The notes below the pieces were generated by a model. That model was given only the letters and a program-made list of their open reading frames with translations, was not told where the DNA came from and did not search any database. DNA of 54,733 bases from Acidobacteriota bacterium (GTDB lineage Bacteria > Acidobacteriota > CAIWXX01): positions 1-54,733 of the forward strand of contig JBFMAF010000005.1 in assembly GCA_040755995.1 (NCBI GenBank), written 5' to 3'. Positions 3,343-54,733 of this stretch are shown in pieces (position 1 is the stretch's first letter; each line of letters starts with the position of its first letter). The position numbers were made by a program, and so were the translations under genes.

Positions 3343-3429
3343 AAGGTTCAAGGTTCAAAGTTCAAGGTTCAAAGTTCTAAGCGCCCCAGGCTCCCGGAAC
3401 CTTGAACCGGGAACCGTGAACCTTGAACC
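3343..3429. repeat. heptamer tandem/inverted repeat element
   Basis: Five copies of AARGTTC at 3343-3377, then about five inverted GAACCNN copies at 3397-3429. Confidence 0.9.
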
Positions 3430-3432
3430 AGT

Positions 3433-3699
3433 CTATCGGACCGGGATCACCTGCTCCAGCTCGGGAACTTCCTCACGCAGGACACGCTCGACTCCGTAAA
3501 GGAGCGTCATCTGGGCCGACGGGCATCCCGCGCACATCCCCATGAGCCGGACCTTGGCGGACTTGCCGACCACCTCAACCAGCTCCACGTCGCCCCCATC
3601 CATCTGAAGCGCAGGCCGGATCTTGTCCAGTGCCTTCTCGACTTTCCGCTCCATCTCCGTAATCTCTCTCTGCCTGGCCTTTTCCTGCGTGTCCGCCAT
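3433..3699 (-). CDS. NifU C-terminal domain (Nfu-type Fe-S carrier) protein
   Basis: IRPALQMDGGDVELV and GMCAGCPSAQMTL (CxxC) motifs; AAGGAGG RBS before the ATG at 3699. Confidence 0.93.
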   Translation of the reverse strand: MADTQEKARQREITEMERKVEKALDKIRPALQMDGGDVELVEVVGKSAKVRLMGMCAGCPSAQMTLLYGVERVLREEVPELEQVIPVR

Positions 3700-48524: not shown

Positions 48525-50561
48525 ATGAAAACGCATCCTTGGTGTTTGCCACTTGGTGTGCCGGTGCTCGCTACCCTCGTACTGGCTGCCACGACAGCAT
48601 CCGCTGGAAACGACATCTGGGCAACGAAGGGACCCTATGGGGGCTGGGGCAAAGCTCTTGCGATAGACCCGGCCAAGCCGGCAACTATCTACGCGGGAAC
48701 GTGGGGTAGTGGCGTATTCAAGAGCACGAACGGCGGCGCTAGCTGGAAAGCGTTCAACACCGGATTAACGGATCTGAACGTCCACGCTCTTGCGATAGAC
48801 GCAGCCAATCCGACAACCCTCTACGCGGGGACCAACACTGGCGGCGTATTCAAGAGCACGAACCGTGGTGCAAGTTGGAAAAGCGTCAACAACGGCCTGA
48901 CGGATGTGACCGTGTATGCTCTTGCGATAGACTCAGCGAGCCCAGCAACCGTCTACGCGGGGACCGACGATGGCGGCATATTCAAGAGCACGAACCGCGG
49001 TGCAAGCTGGAAAGCTGTCAACAGCGGCTTAACGGATCTAACCGTCGTTGCTCTTGCGATAGACCCAGCGAGCCCAGCAACCGTCTACGCGGGGACCGAC
49101 GATGGCGGCACATTCAAGAGCACGGACGGCGGGGGTAGCTGGAAGGCCGCCAACACCGGATTGACAGACGCCTCTGTCTACGCGCTTGCGATAGGGGTCG
49201 CGAGCTCGCAAACCCTTTACGCAGGGACCTTCTATGGCGGTGTATTCAAGAGCACGAACGGTGGCGCAAGCTGGAAAGCTGTCAACAGCGGCTTAACGGA
49301 TCTGACCGTCGTTGCTCTTGCGATAGACCCAGCGAGCCCAGCAACCGTCTACGCGGGAACCTATGGTCAAGGGGTATTCAAGAGCTCGAACGGGGGCGCT
49401 AGTTGGGAAGTTGTCAACAGCGGCTTGACGAATCTGGACGTCTATGCGCTTGCGATAGACGCAGCCAACCCGGCCACCCTCTACGCGGGCACCTATGAGG
49501 GTGGCGTATTCAAGAGCACAGACGGCGGCGTTGGCTGGAAGGCGGTCAACAGCGGCCTGAAGGATCTGTATGCACGTGCTCTAGCGATTGACCCCAAGAC
49601 TCCGGAAACCTTGTACGCGGGCACCCGGGGTGGTGTATTCAAGAGCACGAACGGTGGCAGAAGCTGGAAAGCCGTCAACACCGGGTTGACGTGGCTCGCT
49701 GTCGAAGCCCTTGCCATCGACCCAACGAATCCGGCGACCGTCTACGCGGGAATCTGGGATCACGGCGTGTTCAAGAGCACGAACAGCGGCGTTAGCTGGA
49801 CGGCCACCATCGGTGTCAGTTCGGTCGAATGGCTAACGATAGACCCAACGACGCCGCGCACACTAATCGCCGCCACATTCGGCTGCATGTTCATCTCCAC
49901 CGATGAAGGAGAAACATGGAGTTCCTTCGATTCAACTGGACTCGGGATATTCCCTCTGAATGTTGTGCTCTTCAACCCCGGCGATGTCAACACCTTTTTC
50001 GCAGCAGCCTCTCACGGCGGGGTTTACTCGTACACTCGCACGTCTGTTACCCCGATGGCCCCATTGATCGAACAAATCTCGCCGGCCTCGGCCAAGGTTG
50101 GCGACAGCATCACGATCGTCGGGGTGCGCTTCGGTGCGACGCAGGGCGGGAGCACCGTGAAGTTCGGAACCATAGACGCCGGAGCAGCTCAGTCTTGGTC
50201 CGATTCAGAAATCAAGGTGCCGGTGCCCGCTGGTGCCCATAACTGCAGGGTGAGGGTGACTGTGAGCAACAGAAAGAGCAACCCGTACAGCTTCGTGGTC
50301 CTCCCTCCAACCCCGACAGGCAACGTCGAACCGACGAGCGGTCCTGCCGCGGGTGGCACCTCGGTGACGATCCTCGCCCCCGCAGGCACATCGGGCACAC
50401 AATTCAACATGCTCTTCGGCGCGGCAGTCGCGCTGGCGCCGATCACGTTCACCCAGCCCAACATCATCACCTGCATCAGCCCGCCCGGCACGGGAACTGT
50501 GGACGTGAAGGTGACATCTAGCGTCACCTCGACAACCGTCGGGACGTTCACTTACCAGTAG
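48525..50561 (+). CDS. secreted BNR/Asp-box beta-propeller protein with C-terminal IPT/TIG domains
   Basis: Signal peptide; about ten KSTxGGxSW repeats of 44 aa; PLIEQISPASAKVGDSITIVGVRFG and PTSGPAAGGTSVTI IPT motifs. Confidence 0.92.
   Translation: MKTHPWCLPLGVPVLATLVLAATTASAGNDIWATKGPYGGWGKALAIDPAKPATIYAGTWGSGVFKSTNGGASWKAFNTGLTDLNVHALAIDAANPTTLYAGTNTGGVFKSTNRGASWKSVNNGLTDVTVYALAIDSASPATVYAGTDDGGIFKSTNRGASWKAVNSGLTDLTVVALAIDPASPATVYAGTDDGGTFKSTDGGGSWKAANTGLTDASVYALAIGVASSQTLYAGTFYGGVFKSTNGGASWKAVNSGLTDLTVVALAIDPASPATVYAGTYGQGVFKSSNGGASWEVVNSGLTNLDVYALAIDAANPATLYAGTYEGGVFKSTDGGVGWKAVNSGLKDLYARALAIDPKTPETLYAGTRGGVFKSTNGGRSWKAVNTGLTWLAVEALAIDPTNPATVYAGIWDHGVFKSTNSGVSWTATIGVSSVEWLTIDPTTPRTLIAATFGCMFISTDEGETWSSFDSTGLGIFPLNVVLFNPGDVNTFFAAASHGGVYSYTRTSVTPMAPLIEQISPASAKVGDSITIVGVRFGATQGGSTVKFGTIDAGAAQSWSDSEIKVPVPAGAHNCRVRVTVSNRKSNPYSFVVLPPTPTGNVEPTSGPAAGGTSVTILAPAGTSGTQFNMLFGAAVALAPITFTQPNIITCISPPGTGTVDVKVTSSVTSTTVGTFTYQ
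48655..49800 (+). repeat. intragenic 132-bp tandem repeats (nine units)
   Basis: TTCAAGAGC anchors at 48717, 48849, 48981, 49113, 49245, 49377, 49509, 49638, 49770. Confidence 0.9.
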
Positions 50562-51003
50562 TCCGTGATCGCCTCGCGCAGAAGGGGGCAAAGCGACCCG
50601 GTGAGCAGTTCAAACTCTTCCCACAACGTCAACTTGTGGTAAAGTCGCCCGGGGGCTCCATGAAGCATCGAAAAAGGCCAACAAAATCGGCTGCCCGGGC
50701 TGGAGCACGATCGTCAACATTTCCCATTTCCGAGGAGCTCGGCCCGAAGGGCTCGGCGGCGATCGCCGCGAGGTCTCGGCCGGCGGGAACGCTGGGAACC
50801 GTCATTGATACGTCGCCGCGCGATCAGAACAGCGAAACGTGGAACGTGATCATCCGATGGGATGCAAGCAACACCATGCCAGCGTCCACTTATGGACTGC
50901 CTGCCCAAGATCGAGTTCGGCCTGGAGGCCCGCGTCATTGTGCGCCCGAACTGACGGCCGCGCCGCGACCTGGACGAAGGATGCCCTGGGACACGCTGAT
51001 GAC

Positions 51004-51033
51004 TTGCACTCAACAGCGTGGCAGGCGTAAGAT
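51004..51033 (+). promoter_or_regulatory. sigma70-type promoter for the HU-led operon
   Basis: TTGCAC-18 bp-TAAGAT upstream of the HU gene. Confidence 0.45.
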
Positions 51034-51090
51034 ATCCCTGTCCGGTTTCAAACCAACCGATCTATCATTTCATACGAGGAATCAAACAGA

Positions 51091-51402
51091 ATGGCAAAAG
51101 CAATCACGAAGACCCAGCTGATCGCAAAGCTCGCGAAAAGTTGTGAGCTTAAGAAGAAACAGGTCGCGGGCGTTCTCGACTGCATCGTCAGAATCGCTTA
51201 CAAAGAAGCGAAGAACGGCTTCACCTTCCCTGGCCTCGGCAAACTCGTCATCGTTAACCGCAAGGCGCGGATGGGCCGCAATCCGGCGACCGCTGCGCCG
51301 ATCAAGATTCCCGCCAAGCGCGTGCTGAAGTTCCGGATCGCGATGGTCGCGAAGAAATCGATTCTCCGGGCCAAATCGGGCAACGGAGGAACGGGCTGGT
51401 GA
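51091..51402 (+). CDS. HU-family DNA-binding protein (divergent copy)
   Basis: TKTQLIAKLA, FPGLGKL, RKARMGRNPAT, IKIPAKRVLKFR; GAGGA RBS. Confidence 0.93.
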   Translation: MAKAITKTQLIAKLAKSCELKKKQVAGVLDCIVRIAYKEAKNGFTFPGLGKLVIVNRKARMGRNPATAAPIKIPAKRVLKFRIAMVAKKSILRAKSGNGGTGW

Positions 51403-52028
51403 CGGTTTTCCTGCGGCGAGCAGCGGAGACGGCTGCTGCGAAGGTTGAACAGCAAGCCGACAACTCCGCCGTCAAGTACATCGAGCGATACGAAGACTTG
51501 TACATCGAGAAGGACTACAGCCTGCGTGTCAATAAGACGATCCGCCTGGTTTGCGTGAAAGGACCGCTCTGTTGTTTGACCACCGGCTGGACCAGCAACG
51601 ACGTGCCGGCAACGATCGACGAGGTCGGCTTCGAGGTGAGTGCCTTGCCCCGGTCTATCTCGGCCTTCGGTTTGTTGCTGAAGGATCAGCCGGAGCGCAA
51701 GGAGGTGGTCGTGGGCCTGCTGCCGCCGGTCAAGAACAAGAATGCGTTTTCGCTTGAGATCGTCTGGACCTGGCCGCGCTGGTGGACCGCTCTCAGGATG
51801 CATGGGCGCGACCGGGTGGTGGTAGAGCCGCTCAGCGCGGTGAAGAAGCTGCGGGTGCGGCTATTCTGTCACAAGAAGGTTTGTATAGACGGTCATCCCG
51901 GCGTGCTAGCGGTTAACCCGGACGTCGGTAGCACAACCAGCCCCACGGACGCTGGGTCGTACATCGTCCACGATTGGACCTACCATAATGCCCCCGCTAG
52001 GCGCTACGAGCTCACTTTTTCCTTCTGA
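51399..52028 (+). CDS. hypothetical predominantly beta-strand protein
   Basis: GTGA overlap with the HU stop, GGAGG RBS at 51385-51389, amphipathic beta-strand pattern; no TM or signal peptide. Confidence 0.75.
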   Translation: MTVFLRRAAETAAAKVEQQADNSAVKYIERYEDLYIEKDYSLRVNKTIRLVCVKGPLCCLTTGWTSNDVPATIDEVGFEVSALPRSISAFGLLLKDQPERKEVVVGLLPPVKNKNAFSLEIVWTWPRWWTALRMHGRDRVVVEPLSAVKKLRVRLFCHKKVCIDGHPGVLAVNPDVGSTTSPTDAGSYIVHDWTYHNAPARRYELTFSF

Positions 52029-53376
52029 GGTCGGCGCGAACACCGAGCAGGAGGTTCTGGTCGGCATCTCCGACCTCCACCTCGGTGCCTTCAACTCCAC
52101 TTGGTCTTTCTTCATCGATCAGGACGACCCCCAGTTGCGCCGGGTCTTCAGCCGAGACCCGCCCGAATACAACCTGCTGCATTCGCACTCGGCCTGGGAC
52201 CTCTGCCAGCGCGTCCTCAATTCGATCGACGCGGAGGTCGCCGACCTGGCCGCCGGCCGACCGGTCGGCGCGAGGACCCTGGTCCTAATCGGCGACATCC
52301 TTGATCTGTCGCTCGGACCGACCGCCCTCGCTTTCCTAAATGCACGCTGCTTATTTCACTTCCTCCACGAGAGCAAGAAGTTCTCGAAGATCGTCTACGT
52401 GCCGGGCAATCACGACCATCACGTCTGGCGTATGGTGGTCGAAGCCGACATGCTACAAAAGGCGGTCGCCGGCGGGAGCGCCAAGTACGAGCGCTGCTCG
52501 ATTGCTGCGCGACCGGCGCTGGCGCTGGCGCAGATGCTCGACGTCAAGACCCCCTTGACCGTCGCCTATCCGCACTACCTACATCCGCTCTCGGGCCCCA
52601 ACTTCGGCTCGGCCAGGCCGTGGCAGATCGTCTTTCACCACGGTCACCTACTCGAGCGCTGGTGGACCCTCTTGTCGGACGCCCTGGCCTCGCCGAGCGG
52701 GAAGATGCACTCCATCGAGGAGCTAGAGGCCATCAACGAGCCGCTGACCGAGCTTCTGTGGTTCTCGGTTGGCGATGCGGGCCGCTTGAGTGACATGACG
52801 AGCGCCCTCTACACCGGATCCTCGGACGCCCGTGGGCTGCGGCGCAAGGTGGATGACATTCTCGAGGGAGCCGCGAGCGAGCTGAGCGCGCGCTCGGGCG
52901 TGGCGCGTCCGTGGTGGCTTCCGTTGTGGCTCGTCAGGGCGGTGGTGCCGCGTCTGGTCGGTCGTCTGAGCGCACCGCGCAGCCGGCCGGAGCGGATGGT
53001 CGCCGCTGCCAGCACGCTGCGGGGTGACGCGCTCGGCGGCGAGCTGCTGCGCGCCGTGACCAGCTACCGGAGCCGTTATGCCCCGGTGACGCCGTCCTGT
53101 TTCATCTTCGGCCACACCCACCGGACGCAGAGCACGGTGCAGAGCACCGACACGAAGCACGGCATCGATCTCGAAGCGGCGAGCATCGTCTCAGCCACGC
53201 ATCCCCAGGGCTTTGACACCCACATCCTCAATACTGGCGGCTGGGTGGTCGAACCGCGGGGGAAGCCACCGGACGCGAGCATCTTCATCGCCGTGGGCGA
53301 GCAGTTGCGGCTGGTGTCGGTCGACATCCCGGACTCAGCCATCCAGGTTGCGCAGGCCGGCATCGGCCTGCGCTGA
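51988..53376 (+). CDS. calcineurin-like metallophosphoesterase
   Basis: All five motifs: SDLHLG, IGDILD, PGNHDH, HHGH, FGHTH, plus NTGGW. Start uncertain. Confidence 0.9.
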   Translation: MPPLGATSSLFPSEVGANTEQEVLVGISDLHLGAFNSTWSFFIDQDDPQLRRVFSRDPPEYNLLHSHSAWDLCQRVLNSIDAEVADLAAGRPVGARTLVLIGDILDLSLGPTALAFLNARCLFHFLHESKKFSKIVYVPGNHDHHVWRMVVEADMLQKAVAGGSAKYERCSIAARPALALAQMLDVKTPLTVAYPHYLHPLSGPNFGSARPWQIVFHHGHLLERWWTLLSDALASPSGKMHSIEELEAINEPLTELLWFSVGDAGRLSDMTSALYTGSSDARGLRRKVDDILEGAASELSARSGVARPWWLPLWLVRAVVPRLVGRLSAPRSRPERMVAAASTLRGDALGGELLRAVTSYRSRYAPVTPSCFIFGHTHRTQSTVQSTDTKHGIDLEAASIVSATHPQGFDTHILNTGGWVVEPRGKPPDASIFIAVGEQLRLVSVDIPDSAIQVAQAGIGLR

Positions 53377-53552
53377 GGGCACGGCGCTCGACGGCATCGT
53401 TGTCCGACTTAGCCTACCCTATGCAACTAAGACCCGGCCCCGCTGACAAGGCAGGATTGCTAGAGGCAGGAGCCGCTGGACGTGCGCCCTCGCTTCCTAG
53501 GCCGGCGACGGCCAGGTTCGAGATGCTGTGGAGGTAGCACAGGAATCTCCCG

Positions 53553-54302
53553 ATGGCGGTACTAGTTAATCACTTCGACCGCGGCAAGCCCTTCTACCCC
53601 CTCGTGATGAACTACTTGTTGCTTCTCTCGTCGATCAAAGACTTCCTTGTGGAAGGAGCACTTCAGCATGTGACTGCAACGGGGCTCGTGCAAGCCACCA
53701 CTCGGCGCATCGAGTTGCAGCCCTCACCCAGGTCCCTGCAACTAATGGGACCTATTCCGCCCAACACTCCCCTTTCCGCCGCATTCCGCATGCTGGAGCT
53801 TCGACATCCGTCACAGTTGGCGTCCAACCCCGGTGAGCCCTCCACAAGTCAACAGCTGGAGACAATCGAAAAGATACTCCAGGATCTTGAGGGGCCCTTG
53901 GAACTTCGATGCAAAGTGCAGGGCTCCCCTATCAAAGTGCCGCGCACCCTCCTCGTCGCTGAATTGCCACGCGACCCATCGTATCTTTTGTCATTCACCA
54001 TGCGAGCCGCCTCCATCCTTCTCGTCCTCGCCTACGAGCTGACCACGCAGTACCACGACAAAGGTCCTCTGTGGGAATTCCTTCGCCACTGCCGCCACGC
54101 GGCAGCCCACGGTGGCCGTTTTCACTTCAAGCCTGGTGAACCACGCCGACATGCCGAGTGGGCAGGCATTCGGCTAGATGCTTCCCTCGATGGAACGCCT
54201 CTCTTCCAGGAGTCCGCTGCGACCACAGGCCTACTGGATCCTGGTGACCCCATCCGCCTCCTCTGGGACATTGAACAAGCGTTTCCCCAGATGCGATGCT
54301 GA
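53553..54302 (+). CDS. hypothetical protein with HEPN-like R-x4-H motif
   Basis: WEFLRHCRHAAAHGGRF in a helical context. Confidence 0.6.
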   Translation: MAVLVNHFDRGKPFYPLVMNYLLLLSSIKDFLVEGALQHVTATGLVQATTRRIELQPSPRSLQLMGPIPPNTPLSAAFRMLELRHPSQLASNPGEPSTSQQLETIEKILQDLEGPLELRCKVQGSPIKVPRTLLVAELPRDPSYLLSFTMRAASILLVLAYELTTQYHDKGPLWEFLRHCRHAAAHGGRFHFKPGEPRRHAEWAGIRLDASLDGTPLFQESAATTGLLDPGDPIRLLWDIEQAFPQMRC

Positions 54303-54599
54303 GTCATCCCGAGCAGTAATTCCATGCGCTGCCTTGACTGCGGCCAGTACGCGCCGGGACCGGTGATCTGCGCCTGAGTCTGTCTCGACTGCTTCGTCGG
54401 TCGACGACCCTGCGTCCGACGTCGGAACGCACCACAACGTCAGAATCTGTCGTCGTGGCGATCGCCGCGAGAAAACGACGCGCCAGGATGCGCCACGTTC
54501 AACGATCCCGGCCGAGGTAAGGGTCTAGCATCCCCCTTTGGAGCTCGCGCCGTGCAGCCGCCGATAACCAGGTCCCCCTTTGATGATTTCCACGGTTGT

Positions 54600-54617
54600 G
54601 TTATACTAAAATATAAC
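54600..54617 (+). promoter_or_regulatory. pem/parD-type palindromic operator overlapping an extended -10
   Basis: GTTATA-CTAAAA-TATAAC palindrome containing TGnTATACT, directly upstream of the GGAGG RBS. Confidence 0.75.
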
Positions 54618-54631
54618 TCGTGGAGGTGACC

Positions 54632-54733
54632 ATGCACATCACAACTCTGCGCAAGGTAGGAGGTTCGATCATGCTGGCCGTGCCGCCGGCGCTGCTCGAC
54701 ATCCTGCACCTGCAGCCGAGCGCCAAGGTCGGG
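54632..54733 (+). CDS. pemI: AbrB/MazE-fold antitoxin, PemI/Kis type (partial, runs off the window; not in the ORF track)
   Basis: MHITTLRKVGGSIMLAVPPALLDILHLQPSAKVG closely matches the PemI/Kis N-terminus; GGAGGTG RBS. Confidence 0.85.
   Translation, partial: MHITTLRKVGGSIMLAVPPALLDILHLQPSAKVG

Follow-up and report, generated by a model that had tools for sequence, protein, structure and literature searches.

The closest described systems couple a sensor to an enzymatic effector. In the PUA-Calcineurin-CE-HAD system, according to the available part of the source, a calcineurin-like effector is triggered by phage-induced degradation of the chromosome, and its sensor also occurs with effectors of the TIR and HEPN types (10.64898/2026.01.15.699771). 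According to the same part of that source, a domain found with several types of effector is usually a sensor in a conflict system (10.64898/2026.01.15.699771). In the Schlafen protein pSlfn5, phage sensing for an RNase effector is carried out by a modular beta-sandwich that binds protein (PMC13056530, available part). HU, the kind of protein encoded by the first gene of the present locus, is inhibited by phage Gp46 (PMC8892312, available part).

The locus lies near the end of a stretch of 54,733 nucleotides (the window), which is an entire contig of its source genome (G000), an Acidobacteriota bacterium. It is comprised of three genes, encoding an HU protein, protein B and a metallophosphoesterase (Table 1). 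As in the PUA-Calcineurin-CE-HAD system, a sensor, here predicted, is coupled to a calcineurin-like effector and is reused, in the case of B with TIR. Unlike the system in the available part of that description, the predicted sensor of the window has a gene to itself and takes the form of a double beta-sandwich, not of a PUA domain, and a tagged basic leader is present. The enzyme has no N-terminal domain ahead of its metal-binding motif I (residue 29) and hence no fused PUA-like domain, and no match to a HAD phosphatase partner was found among the neighbours in the window or in L085, the only other locus of B and the enzyme seen as DNA. With pSlfn5 the locus shares a beta-sandwich domain, here a predicted sensor, that accompanies an enzymatic effector. 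In the available part of its source, the pSlfn5 sensor is Ig-like, fused to the RNase, likened to the Ig folds of integrin and complement, and has no leader peptide; B matches ribophorin I and the N-domains of M1 aminopeptidases, and the two are set apart by description only.

The models of PADLOC-DB 2.0 gave no full-length system match, only short PDC-S10 motif matches (E 7e-5 to 0.015), none of them for B. The NCBIfam anti-phage models DS-8 and DS-9 (NF053861, NF053862) did not match the window enzyme (P0001) or its relatives P0002, P0003, P0004 and P0006 at E<=0.1. Among the papers listed by literature searches, none was seen to describe the leader-B-phosphoesterase arrangement; supplements of bioRxiv preprints may list the B domain among calcineurin partners. 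The original prediction that the locus belongs to no named system is borne out by both sets of models. The cassette would work like the sensor-plus-phosphoesterase systems, yet it is a member of none, and the tagged, swappable carrier is its new element. In the preferred reading, to which a probability of about 40% is given, the three genes are a mobile and rare cassette for conflict, with B likely binding a tail carried by a swappable basic protein and gating the enzyme. That the cassette has some conflict or defence role is, by itself, slightly better than an even chance.

The coordinates and the dicodon scores, which are coding-like for all three genes (HU 36, B 54, phosphoesterase 130, with a model trained on the source genome), agree that the three overlapping frames are real. 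The stop codon of HU and the start codon of B overlap in GTGA, and B has its own GGAGG at 51385-51389, 9 nt upstream of the GTG; the overlap and the GGAGG are as had been claimed. The second overlap is less secure. It amounts to 41 nt if the phosphoesterase starts at ATG 51988, the sole ATG, GTG or TTG ahead of motif I, and the true start is uncertain since codons 1-20 from there have a non-coding score (-2.5). The single promoter-like element of the earlier account is a weak match, recognised by eye, whereas a sigma-70 scan reported nothing upstream of HU and found its sole match within 50500-54733 at 54580. A reading of B as the frameshift-split N-terminus of the enzyme was rejected because the two are separate frames, 6 nt apart, in L085, and because three close enzymes begin at motif I.

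Table 1. Features of the cassette and its immediate flanks (positions in the window)
Feature	Position	Strand	Remarks
Intergenic repeat, upstream	50613..50786		blastn: five further copies in the source genome, 74-84% identical (contigs C36, C11 twice, C33, C28)
Weak promoter-like match, TTGCAC-18nt-TAAGAT	51004..51033	+	7/12 by eye; below scan threshold
HU leader gene	51091..51402	+	103 aa; PF00216, E 1.2e-17; residues 1-94 HU, then C-terminal extension; pI 11.2
GGTGW-stop junction	51385..51402	+	conserved; includes GGAGG as ribosome site and overlaps the B start
Protein B	51399..52028	+	209 aa; no Pfam; N-terminal helix and double beta-sandwich; WxWPxWW motif; predicted sensor
Calcineurin-like metallophosphoesterase	51988..53376	+	462 aa; all five motifs and NTGGW; start codon uncertain
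Short repeat, matching an IS-like element end; right edge of the cassette	53393..53430		two copies on C24, one on C41

The conserved unit is B and the enzyme, without HU. Of the five close enzyme relatives (P0002-P0006), the three whose contexts were covered (P0002, P0003 and P0004) pair with B. P0004 and the B relative P0123 are adjacent in L085 (locus tags O7H41_21795 and O7H41_21800), which belongs to a Planctomycetota metagenome-assembled genome (JAPUJT010000204.1). P0122 and P0002 come from the same source, both on 2042-nt Logan contigs, and are presumably paired, exactly 1 of the 36 offsets tried being compatible with an overlap like that in the window; P0127 and P0003, likewise from one source and both on 10110-nt JGI contigs, are presumably adjacent. 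B and the enzyme are very probably a functional pair. The original prediction of a recurring trio is thus retained for the pair, found in three other, unrelated records (one as DNA, two by deduction), and fails for HU, which is absent in L085.

The HU of the window is a genuine member of the HU/IHF family (PF00216, 64.4 bits against a cut-off of 22.4) with the full sequence of the HU fold and the GRNP arm at residues 63-66. It is a paralogue and not the sole housekeeping hup, as had been proposed: another contig of the source genome (G000:C55:280715-280999) encodes a further HU of this subtype, which has the usual GRNPATGE and is 76% identical. At E<=1e-20, 22 of 151 genomes had an HU match; the source genome has two such matches and genomes G001 and G002 have one each. 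Two relatives from the host family are 74-75% identical to the window HU and all others at most 61%. In a quick tree of 22 rows the window HU groups with three HUs of the host family (74-76% identical) with a clade support of 96. An unpublished genome, G025, is counted in the genome tallies and was excluded from the HU alignment and tree; none of the claims depends solely on it. Between the window HU and the family HUs dN/dS is 0.12-0.19, and among the latter 0.08-0.11, at almost saturated synonymous sites. These ratios and the placement in the tree indicate an older, still selected and slightly faster copy of the host-family lineage; recent duplication of the C55 HU is unsupported, synonymous sites being near saturation (pS 0.62).

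The window HU had been described as atypical, and this is correct in part. The two cysteines and the 'AP' following the GRNP arm were rejected as special traits, both being ordinary in host-family HUs: the same two cysteines occur in the HU of G002, and 'GA(P/A/T)IKIPAK' after GRNP is common in the subtype. The substitutions G68A and K85M (AK to AM) occur in none of the other 19 HUs aligned. The real addition is a C-terminal tail of 9 residues ending in GGTGW, and it is this tail, the two substitutions and the operon with B that distinguish the window HU from its paralogue on C55.

In L085 there is no HU ahead of B. Its place is taken by a Lys/Ser-rich frame of 45 codons at 936-1073 (10 of its 45 residues are Ser), which has its own GGAGG and ATG, ends in DGGGTGW-stop and overlaps the B start by TAATG; the window HU ends in NGGTGW-stop with GTGA. 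A frame of such length, starting with ATG behind a Shine-Dalgarno sequence, occurs in 1.1% of shuffles (chance 0.011), and this small gene is absent from the protein collection searched. Both carriers have a pI of 11.2. In view of this 45-residue basic peptide and of the nesting of the window HU among host-family HUs, the claim that HU is a fixed member of the system is not supported; HU would be a carrier brought in as a replacement within this lineage. By eye, the segment AKIRKDRLL of the L085 peptide resembles AKVAKDTVL of the C-terminal HU helix, a likeness that may be compositional.

The last 18 nt of the two leaders (window 51385-51402 and L085:1056-1073) are identical at 15 positions, and all three changes are silent (simulated p about 0.008). 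The B genes of the two loci are 43% identical in DNA, and none of their 203 windows of 18 nt reaches 15 matches, the maximum being 13. A GGTGW end is found in one of the 5394 called genes of the source genome, and one of its 447 coupled genes, which is the window HU itself; the DNA pattern of the junction occurs in 14 of 400 other genomes, in none of them ahead of a B gene. The evidence for the tail comes from two loci, the motif was defined post hoc from those same loci, and its first two glycines are explained by GGAGG. The tail probably acts as a peptide. Recurrence of B with the enzyme, together with a second, unrelated basic carrier that has this tail, makes an undescribed, putative defence cassette that reads the tail likely.

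The same junction can be explained in another way. B and the enzyme would form a two-gene unit, likely of sensor and effector, and the upstream frame would be a leader for translational coupling, with HU captured by chance as a supplier of promoter and ribosome traffic and with a tail that has no role as a peptide. The junction does double as a ribosome site and an overlap, and GG at positions -5/-4 is threefold enriched in the coupled genes of the source genome (14 of 447, against 58 of 5394 called genes). The carriers are unrelated, the HU nests in the host lineage, and B domains are also fused to TIR and other enzymes, all of which a coupling leader would accommodate. It accounts less well for the fact that all three changes are silent and that TGW is kept beyond GGAGG; no conserved RNA fold was detected at the junction (z -0.26 and 0.46), both carriers are strongly basic, and the HU is under purifying selection. 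A pure coupling leader is regarded as somewhat unlikely.

Proteins with the same ending are also found in phages. Three viral contigs (L166, L215 and L169) encode proteins of about 750 residues, tape-measure-like by length, that end in GGTGW-stop and are coupled to the next gene. They were retrieved by a scan for GGTGW itself and so have no value as evidence, and would become a lead if B senses phage C-termini. The scan of viral contigs gave at least 120 matches, and among the matches listed none lies near B or the enzyme by profile.

Protein B was modelled from an alignment of six rows with a pLDDT of 92 and a pTM of 0.85; this model supersedes a poor single-sequence fold (pLDDT 45.6). The predicted beta-sandwich matches ribophorin I (6s7o_E: Z 15.1, rmsd 2.9, 173 residues aligned) and the N-domains of M1 aminopeptidases (Z 11-14; 13.7 for 5fwq_A). 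It is 209 residues long, aligns to the N-domain only and has no zinc catalytic domain of the M1 aminopeptidases. Among the structural look-alikes in the Atlas are clusters with TIR, guanylate cyclase, deformylase-HTH, Metallophos and DUF2207 (TM 0.71), to be taken as leads in which one predicted model is compared with another. A viral fold search returned only M1-like proteins of giant viruses. Neither B nor its five standalone relatives match Pfam, and the likeness to DUF2207 (PF09972) is structural only. B is predicted to share the fold of ribophorin I, the M1 N-domains and DUF2207-like proteins; in contrast to these, to which it is 5-15% identical, it has no Pfam match and no peptidase domain, neither a signal peptide nor a membrane anchor was seen, and it forms a WxWPxWW family of its own.

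A full HMMER search found ten relatives of B: five standalone proteins of 207-233 residues, one in which B precedes a TIR domain (P0128), two in which B follows a phosphoesterase (P0130 and P0131) and two in which it precedes hydrophobic segments. In the last two (P0126 and P0129) the B domain is attached to membrane segments with exported domains. The phosphoesterase part of P0130 is DS-9-like and matches the anti-phage phosphoesterase model NF053862 in part. The fused phosphoesterases have no significant similarity to the window enzyme (E 0.31 for P0130), and B has thus been paired with this class of enzyme at least twice. Reuse of the domain with TIR and with other phosphoesterases is the ground on which B is predicted to be a sensor. 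The beta-sandwich of the original prediction is upheld by the model, and the adaptor role given to it is not, as B looks more like a sensor than a passive adaptor.

The distribution of B is patchy. Among 401 genomes of the phylum it was found in one, that of the window, with seven candidates scored per genome shown. No relatives were found in viral contigs, plasmids, phages or two other genomes of the class, and word-index searches with B returned B itself or three rows of its own alignment.

The enzyme carries, intact, the five metal-binding motifs previously reported (D29/H31, GD102-103, GNHD140-143, HHGH217-220 and GHTH375-378), which place it in the calcineurin-like metallophosphoesterase superfamily; its activity is predicted. 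Its score with the Pfam Metallophos model, 18.6, is below the cut-off of 21.5, and Atlas features and structure assign it to PF00149. The five close relatives are 44-50% identical and about 200 distant ones 22-33%. In a quick tree of 48 rows (P0001-P0012 and 36 proteins of 380-559 residues from loci L085-L125), the window enzyme and P0002-P0006 form a clade on a long branch (1.77) with an SH-aLRT support of 100. The distant relatives are uncharacterised PF00149 enzymes of 400-500 residues from Thermodesulfobacteriota and other bacteria, in which the metal ligands, GNHDHH, HHGH, GHTH and NTGGW are conserved across 120 relatives; they differ from the window enzyme in their low identity to it and in having no B at their loci. 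Over the 164 loci listed, a B profile matched only the window and L085, leaving 162 without B. A metagenome scan gave only distant enzymes among the matches listed; further close loci may exist beyond these and beyond the matches listed by a scan of genomes.

The enzyme could also be a metabolic hydrolase of lipid or sugar phosphoesters, with B as an accessory substrate-binding subunit and no conflict system at all. The commonest neighbours of the distant relatives are histidine kinases, at 21 loci, followed by GMC oxidoreductases at 17 and glycyl-radical enzymes at 9, with 147 of the 160 loci listed having a recognised frame; a 5'-nucleotidase and hydrolases are also found. These metabolic neighbours count against a defence ancestry of the enzyme, and B does resemble non-catalytic domains of ribophorin I and peptidases. 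The B-linked clade is nevertheless separate, none of those neighbours is present in the two loci seen, and the patchy spread, the mobile flanks and the B-TIR fusion fit poorly with a metabolic enzyme; this alternative is considered quite unlikely. The enzyme may resemble LpxH-like lipid pyrophosphatases; searches of NCBIfam and of PDB sequences gave no match. As an observation in its own right, the widespread family of 400-500-residue metallophosphoesterases at loci L005-L164 lies beside GMC oxidoreductases (17) and pairs of a glycyl-radical enzyme and its activase (9).

Most of the 54-kb window is housekeeping, and the defence-like setting is restricted to the last 4 kb. On C36, the copy of the upstream intergenic repeat has a TIR gene, an integrase and PemK as neighbours, and the copy on C41 of the short repeat at the right edge is next to rve transposase genes. 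The latter, two in number, belong to an IS-like element (G000:C41:20245-23754) that also contains a CHC2-zinc-finger/Toprim gene and whose end matches window 53393-53430. A contig of run X1 matches window 53398-54357 with 8 differences, and its first 250 nt are off the window, as expected of a variable site but equally of an IS at this position. Among the contigs of sequencing runs placed on the window, none covers B or the enzyme. Downstream of the cassette lie a frame with an RxxxxH motif, one more repeat and the beginning of a MazE-like gene, a copy of which is found on C10 ahead of PemK, an integrase and a NACHT protein. As to the proximity to defence and mobile genes that was originally suggested, the flanks carry repeats of mobile elements and the first part of a toxin-antitoxin pair; upstream, the surroundings are housekeeping genes. 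L085 is 4.5 kb long, and its cassette is flanked by two direct repeats of 218 nt (38-252 and 3351-3568; 78%).

Several other elements were noted in these regions. The RxxxxH frame (53553-54302, + strand) encodes 249 residues with RHAAAH, a putatively HEPN-like motif; it has atypical codon use, a near-identical copy with different upstream DNA in run X1, and no match in Pfam, NCBIfam, PADLOC or PHROG. A family of small mobile islands (window 54468-54733; G000:C10:570-7171; G000:C36:340904-343651) shares repeats, MazE/PemK and a tyrosine integrase and carries TIR or NACHT-FGE-sulfatase genes as cargo; the window contig stops inside the MazE-like gene. Upstream, 48525-50561 (+ strand) encodes a BNR/Vps10-repeat and IPT/TIG protein with internal repeats of 132 nt and many paralogues, on C36, C30, C55, C9 and C33. 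Each L085 repeat encodes a gene end, SNGNGG-stop, that is slightly like the window HU tail SGNGGTGW, probably by chance.

The conflict cassette, as preferred here, is supported by conservation of the junction, the basic carriers, the B fusions, the patchy spread and the repeat-bounded loci; against it stands the occurrence of the B fold in non-defence proteins (ribophorin I, aminopeptidases, DUF2207). Its putative operation can be outlined as follows. Overlap of the leader with B would yield matched amounts of both. The basic body of the carrier would park the tail on nucleic acid, and in the window the carrier would likely form pairs with the other HU of the host as well. B would bind the C-terminal GGTGW of the leader and thereby gate the phosphoesterase, and through the carrier this switch would depend on how the chromosome or protein synthesis is faring. 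A tail that holds B and the enzyme off, in the manner of an antitoxin, is moderately favoured over a tail that acts as an activator. Stripping or destruction of the carrier during infection, through degradation of host DNA, phage HU-binding proteins or translation shut-off, would then release the enzyme. The substrate is likely a nucleotide or lipid phosphoester.

A wider, new class of chromosome guards, in which a C-terminal GGTGW tag of five residues on interchangeable nucleoid-binding carriers, here the HU of the host itself, would be read by a so far unnamed family of beta-sandwich sensors, also wired to TIR, cyclase and other phosphoesterases, and in which loss or release of the carrier upon infection would fire the effector, is unlikely. 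The weakest alternative is signalling directed at chromatin, in which B would dock GGTGW and deliver the carrier as a substrate from which the enzyme strips a mark, either a phosphate or a nucleotide: protein phosphatases are among the calcineurin-like folds, the L085 leader is Ser-rich and histone-tail-like and the Thr is kept in the tag, but no kinase or transferase lies in either locus seen, the window HU tail is not Ser-rich and NCBIfam gave no protein-phosphatase match, which makes it very unlikely.

If the preferred reading is true, a bacterium's own nucleoid protein would have been made into bait by a short tag, and prokaryotes would thus have a counterpart of integrated decoys. C-terminal peptides would then be the class of ligand of a beta-sandwich domain, as yet without a name, whose recurrent partners are TIR, cyclase, deformylase and phosphoesterase domains. 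Even without a role in defence, B and the enzyme are a conserved, undescribed pair.
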